Counted from the stretch's first letter, positions 23,710 through 32,603 are shown. The stretch is 37,259 nucleotides of DNA from an uncultured Cytophagia bacterium (GCA_964554965.1 CAZKQR010000003.1:1-37259), one strand, 5' to 3'. Made by a program: numbers and translations. The notes: generated from the sequence alone by a model not told the origin.

Positions 23710-26490
23710 TCACTTTGTCAGTTCCAATCCCCAGGTTTTATTTTTCATTATCGCCGGCACGCCGGTTTTCATCCATAGGGGCATGGGAGCGTCCATTAAA
23801 TAGTGATCGAAAAACTGCTGCAGACGAATGGAGAGATCCTTGCGATTTTTGCGCTCTTTGAGATTGTGTTCTTCGCCGTTGTAAACCAGCAGCCAGGCGG
23901 GTTTGCCCAACCGGCGTAGAGCGGTGAACAGCTCGATCCCCTGCTGATAGGGGACGGCGCCGTCGTTATCGTTATGCATGATCAACAGTGGAGTGGTGAC
24001 ATCCGGCGCTTTAAACAGCGGCGAGTTTTCGATGTAATGCCACGGTTTTTCCCACAGCGTGGCGCCGATGCGGCTTTGTTCCCGCTCATACTGAAACTGG
24101 CGCACCCGGCCCGACTCTAGACGAATGCCTCCATAGGCGCTGGTCATGTTGCTCACCGGAGCGCCGGCGCCGGCGCAACGAAACAGATGCGAGTGCGCAA
24201 CCAGATAGGCCACCTGGTATCCGCCCCAGCTCTGCCCCTGAATGCCGATGCGGCTTTGGTCGACGAATCCGCGACCAATCAGAGCATGAACGCCGGGAAG
24301 GATGCACGACAGTGCGCTTTTCCCCGGATACCCGTCTTCATAGACGATGTCCGGAATAAAAAAGAGATAACCACGGCTGGCGTAGAACACCGGCGAAACC
24401 GTGGATGCGCTGGGCCGTGGTTCAAAGTACCGGTGCAGCAGATCGGCGTTGCGCTCGTAAAAATAGACGATCATGGGGTATTGCCTGGTCGAGTCGAAAT
24501 TTTCCGGCTTGTACAGCAGGCCCTGCAACGGTTTGCCGTCGTTGGAGAGCCAGTGGACCAATTCTACCGATCCCCATAAATAGCCGGCCTGCTGCGGATT
24601 GGCGTCGCTCCTTCTCAGCGGTTGAGTGAACCGTGTATCCATAGTCCACAGATCGGGAAACTCGCGAAAGGTGGAGCGCGTAAAGGCCAGCCTGTCCGCC
24701 TGTTTTGCTTTGATCGGATTGCCCAGGGATTGAGCCGCGTGAAAAAGGAGTAGCGGCGCTGCGTCGTCGCGCAGCCGTTTGCTGCAAAAGCCTTCGGATT
24801 TGTCGCGATAATCAAAAGTTTTCAGCAGCAGCGGCTTGTCGCTATCGATAAATTTGATCTCCGGATCCAGCGACAGGTAACGGTAGCTGGTTTGCTCCTG
24901 TCGCCCCAGTCCTTTGGTGATGATACGGGCAGCGGCTTTATTCGCCGGATCCAGCTCCCAGATATCGTAACGGTCATAGAGCAGAACGCGGCGGTCCTGA
25001 GCGGTCCAGCCCATCAATCCATAGGCGGCCGGGTAATTCAGACGGTCATTCAGTTCATCGGCAAAAGAGACGCCGAGGCCGGCGGTCAGGTTGTTGGTTT
25101 TTCCGGAAGCGACCTCATAAGAGAACCAGTGGCTCTGCACTTCATCGAACCACAGCACGTATTTGCCATGGGTTGAGGCGCTGACAGGGCCGGCGATCTT
25201 TTTAGCGATGAGGGTGCGTGCGCCATCTGCAAGGCGTACGCTGTAGAGATCCTGAAAGGTGGCGCCATCCCAGGAGAGCAGCATCTGATAAGGCAGGCTG
25301 CTCAGCCCCAAAGCCCAAGGGGCGTCGCCCTCTTGGACGATTTTCACCTCGGGCAGATCGACGGCCGCCAGTTGCGAGAATTTTTCATCTTTCACGCGCA
25401 CCGCCGCTGTGTAACTGCGCTTGAGTTCCTTTTCCAGGTCATGAACCTGCTGCGACTGTAGAAGCGGGTCCTGGTAATGCCAGATGTCGAGTTTGGCGGT
25501 TTCGAACTCTACCAGCAGGGTGTCCTCAGCCACGGGGATGGGCGCTGTGCCTAAAAACAGCTGTTCGCCGTTGCGGCTGAACTGGAGCGTCTGGTTTTCG
25601 CTGATCAGCCAGTGTCGCGGGAAACCGGTTTTCAGCGTGTCGAGAAGCCGGCGCGCCGAATCGTTCTCCGCGCGCCAGCAAAAGAGGGAATAAAACCGTT
25701 GTTTGTTTTTGCTGGTGTCGCTGTCGGCAAGAAAGGCGGCCTGTTGGCCTGGTTCATCCCAGAGTAATTTTTTATACACCGCCTTGCCGCTTTGAATCAT
25801 ACGCCAGGAGGAAGAGGAGGTGGTAAATACATAGACGCCGGGTTTTTGTGTGCTGTCCGCGTCAGAGCAAGCGAATAGAATGCGCTGCCCCGTCTTGGCG
25901 ACCTGATAGTCCGTCACGGCATGAAACGTCCACTCCCGGCCGTCTGTCAGCCGTCTTATCACCAGATCGCTGCCCGCTTCATCCGCTTTCTTTTTATCTT
26001 TGCCCTTCTCCTGTTTCGCCAGCGCCGGATCTTTCTCGCGCTGATACGCCAGCCAACCGGCGCCCTTTTCCGGCAGCTGAAAAGATTTGAGCCACCCGAC
26101 CTTGGTCACTGAACCGTTGTTCAGTTGCAGGATGGCCAGAGAATCCTTGGGCATCTCCTCCTCTTTTTTCTTGGCGATCTTGGCTTTGCGAGTCTCCTGA
26201 AAAAAGGGTTGAATGTGCGCTACCACGAAACGCGAGTCTTGAGTAAAAAGCGCTTTGTGGCCGCGGGGAATCAGGAAGGTTTGTTCTCGATCGAGCGCGG
26301 TGATCCGCAGCTCACCATCCCCTTCCTGGGGCGCCAGGCTGTAAAGCAAAAAGGCGCCGTTCTCCGACAGAGCGGTTCCGGCGATCGAGTTCCATCGGTC
26401 ATAGACCGAGTGGTCGAGCGGTTTTTTTTCAGCCAAACAGCTTGCGGCGATTACCAAAAGGCAAAGCGAAAGACCGATCCGTTTCATCAT
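23710..26490 (-). CDS. S9 family serine peptidase (prolyl oligopeptidase/dipeptidyl peptidase type), secreted
   Basis: ORF trimmed to ATG 26490 (MMKRIGLSLCLLVIAASC, a signal peptide). A long propeller-like N-terminal region precedes the catalytic domain with GIQGQSWGGY (GxSxGG) and downstream D/H (HNDNDGAV, EEHNL). Confidence 0.8.
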   Translation of the reverse strand: MMKRIGLSLCLLVIAASCLAEKKPLDHSVYDRWNSIAGTALSENGAFLLYSLAPQEGDGELRITALDREQTFLIPRGHKALFTQDSRFVVAHIQPFFQETRKAKIAKKKEEEMPKDSLAILQLNNGSVTKVGWLKSFQLPEKGAGWLAYQREKDPALAKQEKGKDKKKADEAGSDLVIRRLTDGREWTFHAVTDYQVAKTGQRILFACSDADSTQKPGVYVFTTSSSSWRMIQSGKAVYKKLLWDEPGQQAAFLADSDTSKNKQRFYSLFCWRAENDSARRLLDTLKTGFPRHWLISENQTLQFSRNGEQLFLGTAPIPVAEDTLLVEFETAKLDIWHYQDPLLQSQQVHDLEKELKRSYTAAVRVKDEKFSQLAAVDLPEVKIVQEGDAPWALGLSSLPYQMLLSWDGATFQDLYSVRLADGARTLIAKKIAGPVSASTHGKYVLWFDEVQSHWFSYEVASGKTNNLTAGLGVSFADELNDRLNYPAAYGLMGWTAQDRRVLLYDRYDIWELDPANKAAARIITKGLGRQEQTSYRYLSLDPEIKFIDSDKPLLLKTFDYRDKSEGFCSKRLRDDAAPLLLFHAAQSLGNPIKAKQADRLAFTRSTFREFPDLWTMDTRFTQPLRRSDANPQQAGYLWGSVELVHWLSNDGKPLQGLLYKPENFDSTRQYPMIVYFYERNADLLHRYFEPRPSASTVSPVFYASRGYLFFIPDIVYEDGYPGKSALSCILPGVHALIGRGFVDQSRIGIQGQSWGGYQVAYLVAHSHLFRCAGAGAPVSNMTSAYGGIRLESGRVRQFQYEREQSRIGATLWEKPWHYIENSPLFKAPDVTTPLLIMHNDNDGAVPYQQGIELFTALRRLGKPAWLLVYNGEEHNLKERKNRKDLSIRLQQFFDHYLMDAPMPLWMKTGVPAIMKNKTWGLELTK

Positions 26491-26685
26491 GAGTACCTGA
26501 CTGGTTGTGAGCGAAGAAGGATTTAACAAATGTAGGAATTTTTGCGGGAAAAATAAACAACTATGTGCAGCGCGCGCCCGGGGAGGGAGCGAAGAGCGCC
26601 CTACGGGTGCTGCCGTTCCATTGCTGCGATGGTGTCGGCGAAAAGCGGCTGGTTGAAAAAAGGGGTATTGCCCATGCCGTCTGGA

Positions 26686-27342
26686 TTAGCCCTGGTCATG
26701 CGCCACGATGCGCGCCTCGGTTAAAAAGACCACCTCTTCAGCGATGTTGGTGGCATGGTCAGCCAATCGCTCCAGCTGTCTGGTGAGCACGATCAGGTGC
26801 GCGCACGGCTCGATGTCGTCGGTCTTGGCTTTCATCCGCTCGACAAGAAATTTAAAAATGCTTTTATTCAAACCGTCCACCGCATCGTCCTGGCGCCGCA
26901 CTTGCAGCGCTTTTTGATTGTCCAGCTCGGTGAACGCCGCGATGGCTGTTTTCAGCATCACTTGCGCCTGTTTGGCCATGTCGATCACCTGCGACTCTTG
27001 TACCAGATCGTGGCGGTCTGCGGTCTTGCGTGTGCGGTTGACGATGTTGACGGCGATGTCGCCGCATCGTTCAAGCTGGGCGCTGATCTTGAGCGCCGTG
27101 ATGATGGTGCGCAGGTCGATGGCCACGGGCTGAAACAGAGCAAACAGGTTTTCACACTGAGCCAGAATCAGGTTTTCATAGGCGTCCGTCTGTTTGTCGC
27201 GCTCCTTGACCACGCGGCAAAGCTCTACATCGGCTTTTTCCAACGCTTCAATGGCCATGCCCACCTGGCCGTCCACCAGCTCCACCATCTGCTGCAAGGA
27301 CGTTTTCAGGCTGTCCATTTCCTGAGTGAAATGATTCTGCAT
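26686..27342 (-). CDS. phoU: phosphate signalling complex protein PhoU
   Basis: 218 aa with two PhoU repeats; the ERIGD-type motifs appear as ERCGDIAVN and ERLADHATN. Confidence 0.9.
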   Translation of the reverse strand: MQNHFTQEMDSLKTSLQQMVELVDGQVGMAIEALEKADVELCRVVKERDKQTDAYENLILAQCENLFALFQPVAIDLRTIITALKISAQLERCGDIAVNIVNRTRKTADRHDLVQESQVIDMAKQAQVMLKTAIAAFTELDNQKALQVRRQDDAVDGLNKSIFKFLVERMKAKTDDIEPCAHLIVLTRQLERLADHATNIAEEVVFLTEARIVAHDQG

Positions 27343-27371
27343 ATGCGATGAACCTCAACCTTGTACATGGC

Positions 27372-27400
27372 AATATACTCATGTTTTTCCCTGAAATCAA
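27372..27400 (-). promoter_or_regulatory. sigma70-type promoter candidate for phoU
   Basis: Minus strand: TTGATT (27400..27395), 17 nt, TATATT+G (27377..27371). About 30 nt upstream of the phoU ATG. Confidence 0.5.
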
Positions 27401-27540
27401 CGAAAACGAGGGGATGATGAAGCAACCGCCGGCGCCACGCTTGGTCAGGGCCTTTTCTGCTCTTGCCGGCCGACAGGCTTCAACTCTATATTTATTTTGT
27501 GCTGATTTCGCCGGCAGCCGATGCGGCGGCGCGCGAGTTC

Positions 27541-27569
27541 TTGACTTTGAGGTGAAATATGTGTAATTT
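27541..27569 (+). promoter_or_regulatory. sigma70-type promoter candidate for pstSCAB1B2
   Basis: TTGACT (27541..27546), 17 nt, TAATTT+G (27564..27570). It lies inside the ORF-track 5' extension of pstS, which argues for the downstream ATG. Confidence 0.5.
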
Positions 27570-27594
27570 GCGGCGGCGAAAAATGAGGGAACGT

Positions 27595-28386
27595 ATGCGC
27601 AGAATCTTTGCGGTCGTTGTCGTTGTTCTGCTTGTTGCTCATCTATCCGCTTGCGGCCATCGGCGCAGTTCGATCACGGTGGCCGGTTCTACGGCCTTTC
27701 AGCCCTTTGCGGAAAAGCTGGCCGATCAATTCATGACCAACCGGCCCACGACGAACATCATTGTGCAGGGCGGCGGCTCCGCAGTGGGCATCCAGTCCAC
27801 GCTGTCAGGAACGGCCCAGATCGGCATGGCGGATCTGGTCACCCTGCCTGAGGAGGCAAAAGGGCTGCAGGCTACGGAAGTGGCCCGGGACGGCATCGCG
27901 GTTGTGGTGCATCCGTCCAACCGCATCAACGACCTGACAATGGATCAGCTGCGCCGAATCTTCAGCGGCCGGATCCGCAACTGGCGCGATCTCGGCGGCA
28001 GCGACGGCGTTATCACCGTTGTTTCGCGCGAGGCTGGATCGGGCACGCGCATTTCCTATGAGCAGATCGTCGGCGATCTCGTTTTGACCAAAGAGGCCAT
28101 CGTTCAGGATTCCAACGGCACCATTCGGGAGACCGTGGCCAATGATCCCAACGCCGTCGGTTATCTGTCGCACGGCTTGCTTAATGAAAAAATCAAAGCG
28201 GTGGCCATCGATGGGGTGGCGTGCACCAACGAAGCCATTCAAAGCAAGCAGTACGCACTGGCACGCCCGATCTTTTTGCTCACCCGTGGAGCGCTGTTGC
28301 CCGACACTCAGGCGTTTATCGATTACATTCTCTCCGCAGAAGGCCAGCAAACCATTCAATCCAGCGGTCTCATTCCGGTTAAGTAG
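27595..28386 (+). CDS. pstS: phosphate ABC transporter substrate-binding lipoprotein
   Basis: ORF 27559..28386 trimmed to ATG 27595 (GAGGGA 5 nt upstream). Lipoprotein signal MRRIFAVVVVVLLVAHLSAC. PstS-family pattern: ITVAGSTAFQPF ... GGGSAVGI. Confidence 0.85.
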   Translation: MRRIFAVVVVVLLVAHLSACGHRRSSITVAGSTAFQPFAEKLADQFMTNRPTTNIIVQGGGSAVGIQSTLSGTAQIGMADLVTLPEEAKGLQATEVARDGIAVVVHPSNRINDLTMDQLRRIFSGRIRNWRDLGGSDGVITVVSREAGSGTRISYEQIVGDLVLTKEAIVQDSNGTIRETVANDPNAVGYLSHGLLNEKIKAVAIDGVACTNEAIQSKQYALARPIFLLTRGALLPDTQAFIDYILSAEGQQTIQSSGLIPVK

Positions 28387-28394
28387 CGAGCGTC

Positions 28395-29258
28395 ATGAAA
28401 CCTTATAGCCTGGGAGAAAAAGGCGTTCAGTACATTCTAACTGCCATCGCTTTTTCCGCGTTGTTCGGGCTGTTGCTGATCGCGCTGTTTATCCTCAAAG
28501 AGGCACTGCCCTTTCTCACCCAGGTGGGCTTGAAAGATTTTATTTTCGCCCACGACTGGGAACCGCAGAGCGGCAAATTCGGCATCTATCCCATGATCAT
28601 CGCCTCTCTGTGGGTGACCTTTGGCGCCATGATGATCGGCGCGCCGCTGGGCATCGCCTGTGCGGTGTTTCTCACCGAATTCGTTCCCCGGCCGGTGATG
28701 CATACGATCAAGCCCATGATTGAACTATTGGCCGGCATCCCCTCAGTCCTTTATGGTTTTATCGGCGTCATTGTTCTGGCGCCCCTGATCCGCTCGCATC
28801 TGGGCGGCCCCGGACTTTCACTGCTGGCCGCCTCCATCATTCTCGGCATCATGGTCCTGCCCACCATCATCAGTATCTCTACGGATGCGATCAGCGCAGT
28901 GCCCACCTCTTTTCGTGAAGGCTCACGGGCCCTGGGCGCCACCCGCTGGCAGACGGTTTATATGGTGGTGTTAAAGGCCGCGCGATCCGGCATCATTTCC
29001 GGCGTCATCCTCGGCATGGGGAGGGCCATCGGCGAAACCATGGCGGTGATCATGGTGGCGGGCAACGCGGTCAAGCTGCCGGGCTCTGCTCTGGATTCTG
29101 TGCGCACGTTGACGGCCAACATCGCCCTGGAGATGGGTTATGCCGTCGGGCTGCACCGCAGTGCGCTGTTCGCCACCGGCGTGGTGCTGTTTATTTTTAT
29201 CATGGTGTTGAACACCCTGGCCGGCGCCTTTGTCAAACGGGAGATACGCCGGCGATGA
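28395..29258 (+). CDS. pstC: phosphate ABC transporter permease PstC
   Basis: 287 aa polytopic protein with the EAA-type loop (REGSRALGATRWQT), first permease after pstS. Confidence 0.85.
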   Translation: MKPYSLGEKGVQYILTAIAFSALFGLLLIALFILKEALPFLTQVGLKDFIFAHDWEPQSGKFGIYPMIIASLWVTFGAMMIGAPLGIACAVFLTEFVPRPVMHTIKPMIELLAGIPSVLYGFIGVIVLAPLIRSHLGGPGLSLLAASIILGIMVLPTIISISTDAISAVPTSFREGSRALGATRWQTVYMVVLKAARSGIISGVILGMGRAIGETMAVIMVAGNAVKLPGSALDSVRTLTANIALEMGYAVGLHRSALFATGVVLFIFIMVLNTLAGAFVKREIRRR

Positions 29259-30094
29259 TGCGGATTCCTGCAAAAGTCAGCCAGGTTGTGGCGGCGGCCG
29301 TTATGGCGCTGGCGACCTTGCTCACCCTGGCGGTGCTGGTCTTTATCGTGGTCTTTATTCTGGAAAAAGGGTTGCCGATCCTGAGCCGTACTTTTCTCTT
29401 CAGCGCCCCCCGGGATATGGGCAAGGCCGGCGGTATTTTTCCCACCATTCTGGCGACGATCCTCCTGCCGCTGCTGGCCATTGCTCTGGCCCTGCCGTTG
29501 GGCGTCGGCACAGCCATCTATCTCACCGAGTACACCCGCGAGAGCCGGTTGACGCGGATCATCCGTTTTGGCAACGATTGTCTGGCCGGCATCCCTTCGA
29601 TCATTTTCGGCCTTTTCGGCTTTCTCTTTTTCGTCACTTTGCTGGAGATGGGCTGGTCGCTGCTGTCCGGCGGGCTGACCCTGGCGCTGATGATTTTGCC
29701 CACCATCATTCGCACCTCTGAGGAGGCGATCAAATCAGTACCGACCTCCTATCGCGAGGTTAGTTTTTCGCTGGGCGCCACCCGCTGGCGCACCATTCAG
29801 CGAGTGGTTTTGCCCAATGCCCTGCCCGGCATTTTGACCGGCGTGATGCTGGGCATCGGCCGTTCCATCGGCGAGACCGCGGCGTTGATCTTTACCGCCG
29901 GCTCTTCGCTGCGTCTGCCGCAATCGCTGTTCGATTCGTCGCGCACCATGTCCGTCCATTTTTATATTCTGGCGCGCGAAGGGCTGTCCACGGAAAACGC
30001 CTACGGCACAGCGGCGGTTCTGATCCTGTCTGTGCTGTCGGTCAACGCCGTGGCCTATTATCTCATGCATCGCTATATGAAAAAAAATGGCTAA
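29255..30094 (+). CDS. pstA: phosphate ABC transporter permease PstA
   Basis: 279 aa polytopic protein. ATGA overlap with pstC. EAA-type loop YREVSFSLGATRWRT. Confidence 0.85.
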   Translation: MMRIPAKVSQVVAAAVMALATLLTLAVLVFIVVFILEKGLPILSRTFLFSAPRDMGKAGGIFPTILATILLPLLAIALALPLGVGTAIYLTEYTRESRLTRIIRFGNDCLAGIPSIIFGLFGFLFFVTLLEMGWSLLSGGLTLALMILPTIIRTSEEAIKSVPTSYREVSFSLGATRWRTIQRVVLPNALPGILTGVMLGIGRSIGETAALIFTAGSSLRLPQSLFDSSRTMSVHFYILAREGLSTENAYGTAAVLILSVLSVNAVAYYLMHRYMKKNG

Positions 30095-30145
30095 CCTTTG
30101 CTCACAGCCGCCACCGGCGCCGGGCCATTCGCCTGCAGGATGCTC

Positions 30146-30901
30146 ATGAAAGCCAAATTCACTTTATTTCAATTCAGCGCCTATTATGGTTCGCATTGCG
30201 CGCTGCAGCAAATCGATCTGCTCATTCCGCCGCGGCGAATCCTTGGCATCATCGGACCTGCCGGCTCGGGCAAGACCACTTTTTTGCGCTCGCTCAATCG
30301 GCTGAACGATCTGACCACCGGCTTTCGCCGGCAGGGCGAGGTGCGGCTGGACGGTGAGGACATCTATGGCGTGGATTTCGATCCCATCGACCTGCGCCGG
30401 CGCGTGGGCATGCTGTTCGCCCTGCCCATCGCCCTGCCCATGACCATCTATGAAAACGTGGTCTACGGTCCGCGCATGCAGGGGATCCGTGGACGGTCGC
30501 AGCTGGCTCAATTGGTGGAAAGCAGTCTGCGCGCCGCTTTTTTATGGGATGAGGTCAAAGACCGTTTAAAGAGTTCCGCACTGCGGCTGTCCGGCGGCCA
30601 GCAGCAGCGGCTCTGCCTCGCTCGCGTCCTGGCTCTGAATCCCGAAGTGATCCTGCTGGATGAGCCGACCTCAGGATTGGACCCCATCTCTACCGCCAAG
30701 ATAGAAGACGCCCTGACCCTGCTGAAGGAGCAGTACACCATCGTGCTGGTGACCAACAACACCATGCAGGCGGGCCGCGTCGCCGACACCACCGCCTTTT
30801 TTTTCATGGGCGAGCTGATCGAGCACGATGAGACCAAAAAAATATTCACCAATCCTGCGAAGCAGCGCACCTTGGATTATGTGACCGGCCGTTTTGGATG
30901 A
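30146..30901 (+). CDS. pstB: PstB-like ATP-binding subunit 1 (Q-loop Gln and H-loop His replaced)
   Basis: ORF 30098..30901 trimmed to ATG 30146 (AGGA upstream). Walker [10 protein letters not shown], signature [13 protein letters not shown] (30587..), Walker B ILLDEP. However, VGMLFALP has Ala at the Q-loop Gln position (30419..30421), and [11 protein letters not shown] has Asn at the H-loop His position (30755..30757). Confidence 0.85.
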
Positions 30902-31668
30902 GGCTCATGGCAACGAAGAACAAAATAGAGATCCAGCGTCTGAATCTTTATTACGGCGCTTTTCACGCCCTGCACGACATTTCAATGGACATTCTGGATC
31001 GCCAGATCACCGCGCTCATCGGTCCCTCCGGCTGCGGCAAATCAACTTTGGTGCGCAGCCTCAACCGGATGAACGATCTGATCAGCGGCGCCCGGGTGAC
31101 CGGCTCTGTGCGGGTGGACGGGGAGGACATCTATGCGGCCAAGGCGGATGTCGAAAAGGTGCGCAAAAAAGTGGGCATGGTCTTTCAACGGCCCAACCCT
31201 TTTCCGCTGTCCATTTTCGACAATGTGGCCTACGGTCTGCGCGTGGCAGGCGTGAAAAACAAAGCCACGCTCCAGAATAAAGTAGAGCAGAGCTTGAGGG
31301 CCGCGTGGCTCTGGGACAGCCTGAAGGATCAGTTGCATGCGTCGGCATTGACCCTGCCCATGGATCAGCAACAGCGTCTGTGCATCGCGCGGCTGTTGAT
31401 CATCGAGCCGGAAGTGATTTTGATGGATGAGCCCTGCTCCGCGCTGGATCCCATCGCCACCGCCAAGATCGAGGAACTGATCCTGGAGTTGAAGAAAAAT
31501 TACTGCATCGTCATCGTCACCCACAACATGCAGCAGGCGGCACGGGTTTCAGATTTTTCCGGGTACATGCTCCTCGGCGACTTGATCGAGTACGATGATA
31601 CTAAAAAAATATTTACCCATCCCGCGGATAAACGCACCGAAGAGTACATCACCGGCCGCTACGGCTGA
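30898..31668 (+). CDS. pstB: PstB ATP-binding subunit 2 (degenerate signature motif)
   Basis: ATGA overlap with pstB1. Near-canonical PstB: [41 protein letters not shown]-terminal YITGRYG. The ABC signature reads [13 protein letters not shown] instead of LSGGQ (31354..31368). Confidence 0.9.
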
Positions 31669-31742: not shown

Positions 31743-32603
31743 TCAATCCGAAGAGGTGAGCGTAAGGCCTTCTTTTATTTCGACCAGCCCCCATTTGCGA
31801 TAATCCCCGTTGTTCATGACTGGAATCGCTCTGCCGATTTGATACATCTCTTGTCGATGATAATGGCCGTGCAGCACCAGATCCGGGCGAAAGCGATCGA
31901 GGAGGGCGACCAGCTCTCGGCGGTTGATCAATCTGGTTGCCGCGGCGAACAGCCTGCCTTCCCGCCGGCTCACCACCGAAGCGGGCAGCAGATGGTGGTG
32001 CAGCACCACGATTTTAAATCTGCCGGCTAACTCTTCGTGCGCCAGGATACGTTCGGCGCTGCCGGGATCCACATAGCCGTTGGAGCAGAAAACATTGCGG
32101 CTGATGTGCGGCAGGCAGCGGTTGGAATCCAACACGATCAGGGCAACCCGTTCGTCTAAAAGTTTAATAAAGGGATAGGGATCTGTTTCCCGGTCGTTCA
32201 ACGTAAGGATGGAGCGAAAGGCGTTGCGAAAGCTGTGGACGAAGAAGGAGAGATCCTTCTCATAGTGCGGCTGATCATAGGCGTGTATTTTCAATGCCGT
32301 GCGGGGAACCTGGCGCCATTTGCGGTAAAAGTCGCCGCCGGCGTGAAAATCTTTAAAGAAAAAATAGTAGAGATCGTGATTGCCGGGCAACACCGTCAAG
32401 CGGTCCGAGGTGGAAAAACCGCTGCGTCGCAGCAGGGCGGCCAGCGCGCGGAATTCTTCAGCGCGGCCGCTCTGACTCAGATCCCCGCTGAGGATCAGAT
32501 GATCCGGATGCGCGCGCTGGACCTGGGTCAGCCGTCGTTCCACCAAAGCGTCCCTCTCGGCGGAAAAGCCGTAATGCAGGTCAGATAGATGGGCGATCTT
32601 CAT
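31743..32603 (-). CDS. metallophosphoesterase (calcineurin-like)
   Basis: Motifs: HLSDLHYG, ILSGDLSQSG, PGNHD, VVLHHHL, LHGHYH. Confidence 0.8.
   Translation of the reverse strand: MKIAHLSDLHYGFSAERDALVERRLTQVQRAHPDHLILSGDLSQSGRAEEFRALAALLRRSGFSTSDRLTVLPGNHDLYYFFFKDFHAGGDFYRKWRQVPRTALKIHAYDQPHYEKDLSFFVHSFRNAFRSILTLNDRETDPYPFIKLLDERVALIVLDSNRCLPHISRNVFCSNGYVDPGSAERILAHEELAGRFKIVVLHHHLLPASVVSRREGRLFAAATRLINRRELVALLDRFRPDLVLHGHYHRQEMYQIGRAIPVMNNGDYRKWGLVEIKEGLTLTSSD

Follow-up and report, generated by a model that had tools for sequence, protein, structure and literature searches.

The Pst system is the textbook high-affinity phosphate importer, and degenerate ATP sites have been much studied in ATP-binding cassette (ABC) exporters. 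In a 37,259-nucleotide (nt) stretch of DNA from an uncultured Cytophagia bacterium (GCA_964554965.1, CAZKQR010000003.1:1-37259), the whole of which is referred to below as the window, the pst operon contains two adjacent ATPase genes on the + strand, pstB1 (30146..30901, 251 amino acids, the 'N-type' subunit) and pstB2 (30898..31668, the 'E-type' subunit). Their products are 52% identical, and each is missing part of the full catalytic motif set: PstB1 is without the Q-loop Gln and the H-loop His, and PstB2 is without the LSGGQ signature. Reading these sequences against the known geometry of ABC dimers, we think it likely that PstB1 and PstB2 form an obligate heterodimer in which one ATP site is consensus and the other is degenerate, the degenerate one probably still binding nucleotide.

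Work up to and including the cryo-electron microscopy (cryo-EM) structures of 2026 (PMC12976172) has regarded the Pst ATPase as a homodimer of PstB, hence symmetric, and the reviews consulted treat degenerate ATP sites for exporters, not for binding-protein-dependent type I importers. The preliminary description of this DNA, which proposed an asymmetric dimer from the sequence alone, stated that a degenerate site is not known to be a described feature of Pst importers, and the searchable full-text literature, outside which most subscription journals fall, indeed yielded no description of degenerate PstB motifs or of an asymmetric Pst ATPase. What appears to be new is the degenerate-site heterodimer design in a type I phosphate importer; the same design is known in exporters.

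Motif states and the two predicted composite ATP sites

Motif columns were set by alignment to the solved E. coli PstB (PDB 9k3x). PstB1 aligns to this protein over 247 residues with zero gaps, so the motif positions are unambiguous, and in gapless full-length alignments PstB1 and PstB2 are 47% and 55% identical to it. PstB1 has a Walker A motif, GPAGSGKTT (30254..30280; GPSGCGKST in canonical PstB), an intact LSGGQ signature (30587..30601) with Arg147 just before it, and a Walker B motif, ILLDEP, that includes the catalytic Glu173 (30650..30667). At the Q-loop position, equivalent to E. coli Gln98, the codon GCC (30419..30421) encodes Ala92 in the sequence LFALP, and at the H-loop position, equivalent to E. 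coli His210, the codon AAC (30755..30757) encodes Asn204 in VTNN. The D-loop reads SGLD (30671..30682) versus the usual SALD, an Ala-to-Gly change that was absent from the preliminary description's list. In PstB2, Walker A, Walker B, the Q-loop Gln, the D-loop and the H-loop His (VTHN) are canonical and the signature alone is degenerate, with LPMDQ replacing LSGGQ (31354..31368) such that the equivalents of Ser155, Gly156 and Gly157 (E. coli numbering) are all changed. All of these features lie on the + strand.

Translation of the open reading frames and alignment thus agree with what had been read from the sequence at the outset: Walker A, Walker B and LSGGQ are intact in PstB1 at the coordinates proposed, Ala and Asn replace its Q-loop Gln and H-loop His, PstB2 has LPMDQ with its remaining motifs kept, and the residues assigned to the Q-loop, H-loop and signature truly occupy those positions. 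Neither type of change occurs in any of the 118 canonical PstB genes that we classified, every one of which has every motif. Independent contigs from sludge and wastewater cover the pair as near-identical strain variants, and among the strain differences listed, beside which there are 81 more, the motif-change codons are untouched.

In an ABC dimer each ATP site is built from Walker A, Walker B and the A-, Q- and H-loops of one subunit together with the signature of the other. In E. coli PstSCAB, ATP is held by Walker A and Walker B of one PstB and LSGGQ of the other (PMC12976172), and the composition of the composite site is the same across the whole ABC superfamily (PMC7756269). Given this published geometry, the PstB1 deviations and the PstB2 signature belong to one site. 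When mapped, all deviations fall in that site (site 1) and the other (site 2) is fully consensus, with the D-loop change, at the dimer centre, as a minor exception. The earlier proposal that the losses are confined to a single composite site is therefore upheld by the alignment and the published geometry together.

Conservation, pairing and ancestry of the asymmetric subunits

The homologue sets comprised the 120 proteins nearest to PstB1 and the 120 nearest to PstB2. All 120 PstB1 homologues (65-94% identical), the named ones coming from Acidobacteriota, Verrucomicrobiota, Bacteroidota, Ignavibacteria and Kiritimatiellia assemblies, have the Ala, the Asn, SGLD and an intact xSGGQ, while LP[LM]DQ or a close variant is found in 119/120 PstB2 homologues, in which the remaining motifs are all intact. 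Because the changes are invariant across these proteins, they are evidently under selection and not the result of drift or decay. Comparison with the 118 canonical PstB proteins determined which changes are specific to each type. Those common to every lineage are, in E. coli numbering, Cys47 to Ser, Gln98 to Ala or Pro, Phe103 to Leu and His210 to Asn in the PstB1 type, and Gly156 to Leu or Met and Gly157 to Asp or Glu in the PstB2 type.

What is kept is as constant as what is changed. In the PstB1 type of the lineages examined, Ala, Pro or Ser always replaces the Q-loop Gln, the H-loop position is Asn in 100% of proteins of both variants of the pair (the second variant is described below), and Cys47 of Walker A is Ser in every protein; the Walker A Lys (Lys49, E. 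coli numbering), LSGGQ and the Walker B Asp-Glu are each kept in 100%. The signature is LSGGQ in 115/116 readable PstB1-type genes from metagenomes, and the Arg or Lys ahead of it (Arg147 in the window) is nearly invariant across the type. In the PstB2 type the Gln, the His, Walker A and Walker B are kept at 100%, and position 157, the second Gly of the signature, is acidic (Asp or Glu) in every lineage, in 100% of the partner subunits. Each subunit thus keeps precisely the elements that only its partner can use, and each would therefore complete a site with the other. This complementary conservation is, as we see it, the strongest sequence argument for a working heterodimer.

Whether the substitutions co-occur in orthologous pairs, a check proposed in the preliminary description, was examined in all loci with readable downstream DNA, and there was no exception: a PstB1-type gene is accompanied by a partner with an acidic residue at signature position 4 in 126/126 loci (11 from the window's own phylum, 10 of the second variant, 4 from a broad sample, 5 from other named phyla and 96 from metagenomes). 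The search of the window's phylum used two motif-specific DNA patterns over 167 species genomes. The PstB1-type pattern lies inside a real gene in 10 genomes, and in all 10 the acidic-signature pattern is matched as well, 600-770 nt downstream on the same strand of that contig; in an eleventh genome the pair is interrupted by the contig start, so that 11/11 are paired. Nine acidic-signature matches in genomes were apparently unpaired, of which eight proved to be chance matches outside any ABC gene and one a real pair cut by a contig end. One PstB1-pattern match in a genome (G097) and one in a metagenome (L169) were likewise chance matches without an ABC open reading frame.

Another asymmetric pair, more divergent than the first, occurs in the window's phylum, and 10/10 sampled loci of this second variant (L099-L105, L114-L116) are paired. 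Its subunit 1 reads GPAQSGKTT at Walker A, V[FAS]PLP at the Q-loop (Gln to Pro), LSGGQ at the signature, LCLDEF at Walker B, IA[IV]D at the D-loop and VTNL at the H-loop (His to Asn), and the partner gene, which overlaps the subunit 1 gene, encodes a signature of LQLEQ, LLLEQ or LSLDR. Some genomes of the phylum have the second-variant pair only, without a canonical PstB.

Beyond the window's phylum, 80 PstB loci listed from named genomes formed the broad sample, and 5 of them were of the PstB1 type and about 75 were a single canonical PstB. The 4 PstB1-type loci with downstream DNA are all followed by a partner, whose signature is LSLEQ, LSAEQ, LSLEA or LSGEQ. Five loci in assemblies of other phyla (L137-L141) all have the order pstS-pstC-pstA-pstB1-pstB2, with pstS encoding 264-266 amino acids; phoU adjoins the pair in L137, L139, L140 and L141, and the contig of L138 ends just past pstB2. 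Scanning metagenomes with the PstB1-type pattern gave 120 contigs, 119 of them with a real PstB1-type gene. The partner signature was readable in 96, with Asp or Glu at position 4 in 96/96, and these partners have the Q-loop Gln in 96/96 and the H-loop His in 91/91 readable cases. No canonical partner was found beside a PstB1-type gene in the 119 contigs, and no PstB1-type gene lacked a partner among those with at least 520 nt of downstream DNA. A cultured host of the asymmetric pair was not found; the cyanobacteria, searched for a tractable model, have tandem pairs that are canonical.

Duplication of pstB alone does not yield a degenerate site. In 20 tandem pstB pairs of Lactobacillales, 40/40 genes are canonical at every motif, as are 12/12 genes in 6 tandem pairs of cyanobacteria. 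The duplicated PstB pairs of Firmicutes, suggested earlier as a point of comparison, are thus a separate phenomenon, and the Lactobacillales result agrees with the report that PstB1 and PstB2 of E. faecalis are identical in Walker A, LSGGQ and the H-loop (PMC12096839). Four cyanobacterial loci (L157-L160) have a PstB paralogue that is without the Q-loop Gln only (VFPKP, VFSKP, VLPKP or VLSKP) and has the D-loop [SF]GLD. At a distance of 0.4-1.2 kb from this paralogue there is a PstB with all motifs canonical, which has no compensating change in its signature.

For a maximum-likelihood tree of 101 PstB proteins, the columns of Walker A, the Q-loop, the signature, the D-loop and the H-loop were first removed. 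On this tree a single split (ultrafast bootstrap 99, SH-like approximate likelihood ratio test 94) unites all 20 acidic-signature subunits, and another (96/85) unites all 21 PstB1-type subunits with one odd Bacillota protein. The Lactobacillales duplicates, which are the sole tandem duplicates on the tree, are placed elsewhere, among canonical PstB. The distance matrices of the partners mirror one another (Mantel r = 0.95, with 0/5000 permutations as high), and within the two variants r is 0.93 and 0.70. The single splits and the mirrored partner distances indicate that each subunit type arose once and that both have been inherited as a unit. Under midpoint rooting, which need not match the true root, the two types are not sisters, and a single duplication may or may not have produced both.

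The LP[LM]DQ variant has a patchy distribution in the window's phylum: it is present in the genus of the window, in one sister genus and in families f22 and f23, both distant, and its proteins share as much as 77% identity with those from other phyla. These two observations suggest that pst operons have been laterally transferred or replaced. In the window's family, other genera have the second variant and a canonical PstB, and three f22 genomes have the asymmetric pair and a canonical PstB.

Two further types of PstB-like protein were seen on the tree. The odd Bacillota protein within the PstB1-type clade comes from a metagenome-assembled genome (L027:197-3354) with a pstC-pstA-pstB-like-phoU operon, and in this sole ATPase the Lys of Walker A (GPAGSGITT), the Glu of Walker B (ILLDRP) and the Gln of the Q-loop are all missing. 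No second pstB was found within 4 kb downstream, and the operon looks like a Pst system without an evidently catalytic ATPase. The other is a lone PstB-like type in the window's phylum (L109-L113), with LSQ[KR]P, the signature LSIGQ, Walker B ILGDEP and H-loop VTHI, which scores about 340-350 bits and forms a distinct long-branch clade beside the PstB1 type.

The junction between the two genes is also conserved in character. The preliminary description had taken an ATGA overlap as support for a 1:1 heterodimer, and the overlap is indeed present in the DNA, with ATG 30898 overlapping the pstB1 stop codon TGA at 30899-30901. Its use as the start is less certain, because another ATG in the same frame, at 30907, is just as well conserved in the genus and coincides with the point where the closest homologues begin (253 amino acids, MATKNK...). 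PstB2 has 256 amino acids from the first ATG or 253 from the second, and the ATGA overlap in the window is thus a possible one. In relatives, apart from a single spacer of about 175 nt, the two genes meet at ATGA or TGATG or lie no more than 9 nt apart (-4 to +9 nt). The long spacer, in genome G032 (L150), separates pstB1 from a partner with the signature LSLDQ; in genomes of family f22 the ATGA-overlap start is the only one. The comparison of start codons covered the window and L142-L150. A tight pstB1-pstB2 junction is therefore the rule, and the genes are probably translationally coupled. Contigs of a close relative in one run labelled 'GENOMIC RNA-Seq' (X19) span positions 30736-31506, from the end of pstB1 across the junction and through most of pstB2; as the library type is ambiguous, this was not counted as evidence of transcription.

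Mechanistic reading and its alternatives

In the mechanism we propose, the heterodimer would sit on PstC-PstA in place of the usual PstB homodimer. Site 1 would be made of the P-loop side of PstB1 and the signature of PstB2, and so would have no Q-loop Gln, Asn in place of His, a changed Walker A, and Pro-Met-Asp where Ser-Gly-Gly is expected. Site 2 would combine the P-loop side of PstB2 with LSGGQ of PstB1 and, being fully consensus, would be the site of the ATP hydrolysis that drives transport. Because the Walker A Lys and the Walker B Asp-Glu are 100% conserved, site 1 should still bind Mg-nucleotide; it would hydrolyse ATP poorly or not at all and would act as a structural or allosteric latch, as in the heterodimeric exporters, one of which, Pdr5, reportedly lost its function once the consensus was restored. 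Heterodimer formation, nucleotide binding at site 1 and loss of catalysis there are all things that we infer from sequence.

Several points weigh against this picture. The catalytic Walker B Glu is kept in 100% of PstB1-type proteins, whereas most described degenerate sites are without it (PMC7756269), and this qualifies the likeness to degenerate-site exporters that had been drawn at the outset. In MRP1, a His-to-Asn change in the H-loop of the active site keeps near wild-type transport, and Q-loop mutants alter kinetics without abolishing activity (PMC7756269), so site 1 could be slow and not dead. The A-loop Tyr20 is also relaxed in PstB1-type proteins, and with an acidic residue near the gamma-phosphate position as well, nucleotide binding at site 1 is not assured.

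The same conserved residues could be read another way, in which the degenerate pocket is a purpose-built regulatory site whose occupancy by ATP, ADP or even phosphate gates the single catalytic site. This reading, which we consider unlikely, draws on the strictly selected Walker A Lys and Walker B Asp-Glu and on the Asp or Glu that is always found at the gamma-phosphate position. If correct, it would mean that each cycle costs one ATP and that the importer itself, alongside PhoU, senses the state of energy or phosphate, and it would apply to an old, single-origin, multi-phylum class of Pst importer. It is also rather improbable that both sites of the heterodimer hydrolyse ATP, with site 1 only kinetically retuned, its Asn serving as hydrogen-bond donor to the gamma-phosphate and its Glu activating water. 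The complete conservation of the Glu and the Walker A Lys would suit such a site, as would the MRP1 results, where the His-to-Asn change that keeps transport is in nucleotide-binding domain (NBD) 2 and the Q-loop mutants there mainly shift kinetics (PMC7756269), but three elements of one site have changed together, including the Ser-Gly-Gly with which the partner signature clamps the gamma-phosphate, and the acidic side chain is invariably present at a signature much like the LNVEQ of the non-catalytic site of Pdr5 (PMC7756269).

A PstB1-PstB2 heterodimer presupposes that the two proteins pair at all, and we see little chance that they do not, either as separate homodimers for different conditions or with PstB1 as a regulatory ATP-binding protein that has no part in transport. 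The cellular functions of pstB1 and pstB2, the tandem genes of E. faecalis, reportedly do not overlap (PMC12096839), and PstB1 scores slightly under the PstB family cut-off; the E. faecalis pair, however, is canonical in all motifs and lies elsewhere in the tree. A PstB1 homodimer would be without Gln and His at both sites and a PstB2 homodimer without a signature at both, although each subunit keeps at 100% the elements that only the partner can use. The genes are never apart in the 126 loci, usually overlap or abut, and co-diverge, and the window's genome has no canonical PstB for either subunit to join. As for decay of a redundant duplicate (an incipient pseudogene) or an error of sequencing or assembly, the source of the window, a fragmented metagenome-assembled genome (446 contigs, 85% complete), might make one suspect either, but the residues are invariant across homologues that are 65-94% identical and whose named members represent several phyla, as well as in 119 metagenome contigs, both reading frames are uninterrupted and of full length, and independent runs carry the same codons. 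The conservation data rule this explanation out for practical purposes.

If the heterodimer with one degenerate site is real, it would be a clean setting in which to ask what number of ATP a type I importer uses per cycle and what the second site is for. It would also mean that annotation pipelines merge two functionally distinct subunits as 'PstB'. More speculatively, the arrangement may reflect energy economy in the uncultured, mostly anaerobic host lineages.

The pst locus and comparison with known systems

Positions 26686-31668 of the window are a complete high-affinity phosphate importer locus, pstS-pstC-pstA-pstB1-pstB2 with a divergent phoU, and the pair is thus found in a pst operon context. 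The phosphate signalling and regulatory gene phoU (26686..27342, - strand) matches TIGR02135 at 186.8 bits, above the cut-off of 130.25. On the + strand follow pstS (27559..28386), for a periplasmic phosphate-binding protein of the PstS family (TIGR02136, 206.0 bits versus a cut-off of 206.6), and the permease subunit genes pstC (28395..29258; TIGR02138, 289.6 bits, over the cut-off) and pstA (29255..30094; TIGR00974, 289.9 bits, over the cut-off), which overlap by 4 nt. TIGR00972 is the best family by far for both ATPase subunits in profile scores, PstB2 scoring 379.6 bits and PstB1 337.1 bits against a cut-off of 343.2. The genome, a fragmented metagenome-assembled genome of 446 contigs and about 85% completeness, was searched for a further PstB-like gene, and none was found above background in that assembly. 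The public runs that contain the window stretch are metagenomes of sludge, wastewater and digesters.

Convergent with pstB2 and flanking the operon is a gene for a calcineurin-like metallophosphoesterase (31743-32603, - strand); a phosphoesterase beside a phosphate-uptake operon may have a role in phosphate scavenging. The other flanking gene (23710-26529, - strand) encodes a 939-amino-acid protein of the S9 prolyl-oligopeptidase family.

The operon parts are the same as in the canonical PstSCAB-PhoU system of E. coli (cryo-EM structures 9k3s, 9k3x and 9k3y; PMC12976172), and the type I importer architecture and the substrate are presumably the same as well. The canonical system has one ATPase gene, whereas here there are two, one composite site is without Gln, His and LSGGQ, and PstB1 falls just under the family cut-off. 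The tandem pstB1-pstB2 genes of Firmicutes and cyanobacteria (pstBA-pstBB; PMC12096839 for E. faecalis, PMC11466899 for B. subtilis PstBA/PstBB) are likewise adjacent genes that end the pst operon and imply a heterodimer. Both copies are canonical in those duplicates, unlike the window genes, which lie in well-supported clades separate from those of Lactobacillales.

Degenerate sites are known from other importers. In RbsA and NupO, from sugar and nucleoside importers with fused ATPases, one of the two ATP sites is degenerate, as proposed here (PMC11466899). The domains in these proteins are fused, the degeneracy concerns the Walker A Lys and Walker B, and they belong to another ABC importer family, unrelated to Pst.

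A parallel in design is seen in the heterodimeric exporters TM287/288, TmrAB, BmrCD, LmrCD, PatAB, TAP1/2, CFTR, MRP1 and Pdr5, which have non-identical NBDs and one degenerate composite site, with a degenerate partner signature, beside a fully consensus one (PMC7756269), as we propose for PstB1-PstB2. The LNVEQ signature at the non-catalytic site of Pdr5 even has an acidic residue at position 4, as in the PstB2 type (PMC7756269). The system in the window differs from the exporters in being a type I importer, with its ATPases as separate polypeptides and with a binding protein in the periplasm, and unlike their degenerate sites, PstB1 keeps the Walker B Glu and loses the Q-loop Gln and the H-loop His. 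The ancestry that these exporters have in common with the Pst pair is that of the general ABC ATPase fold.

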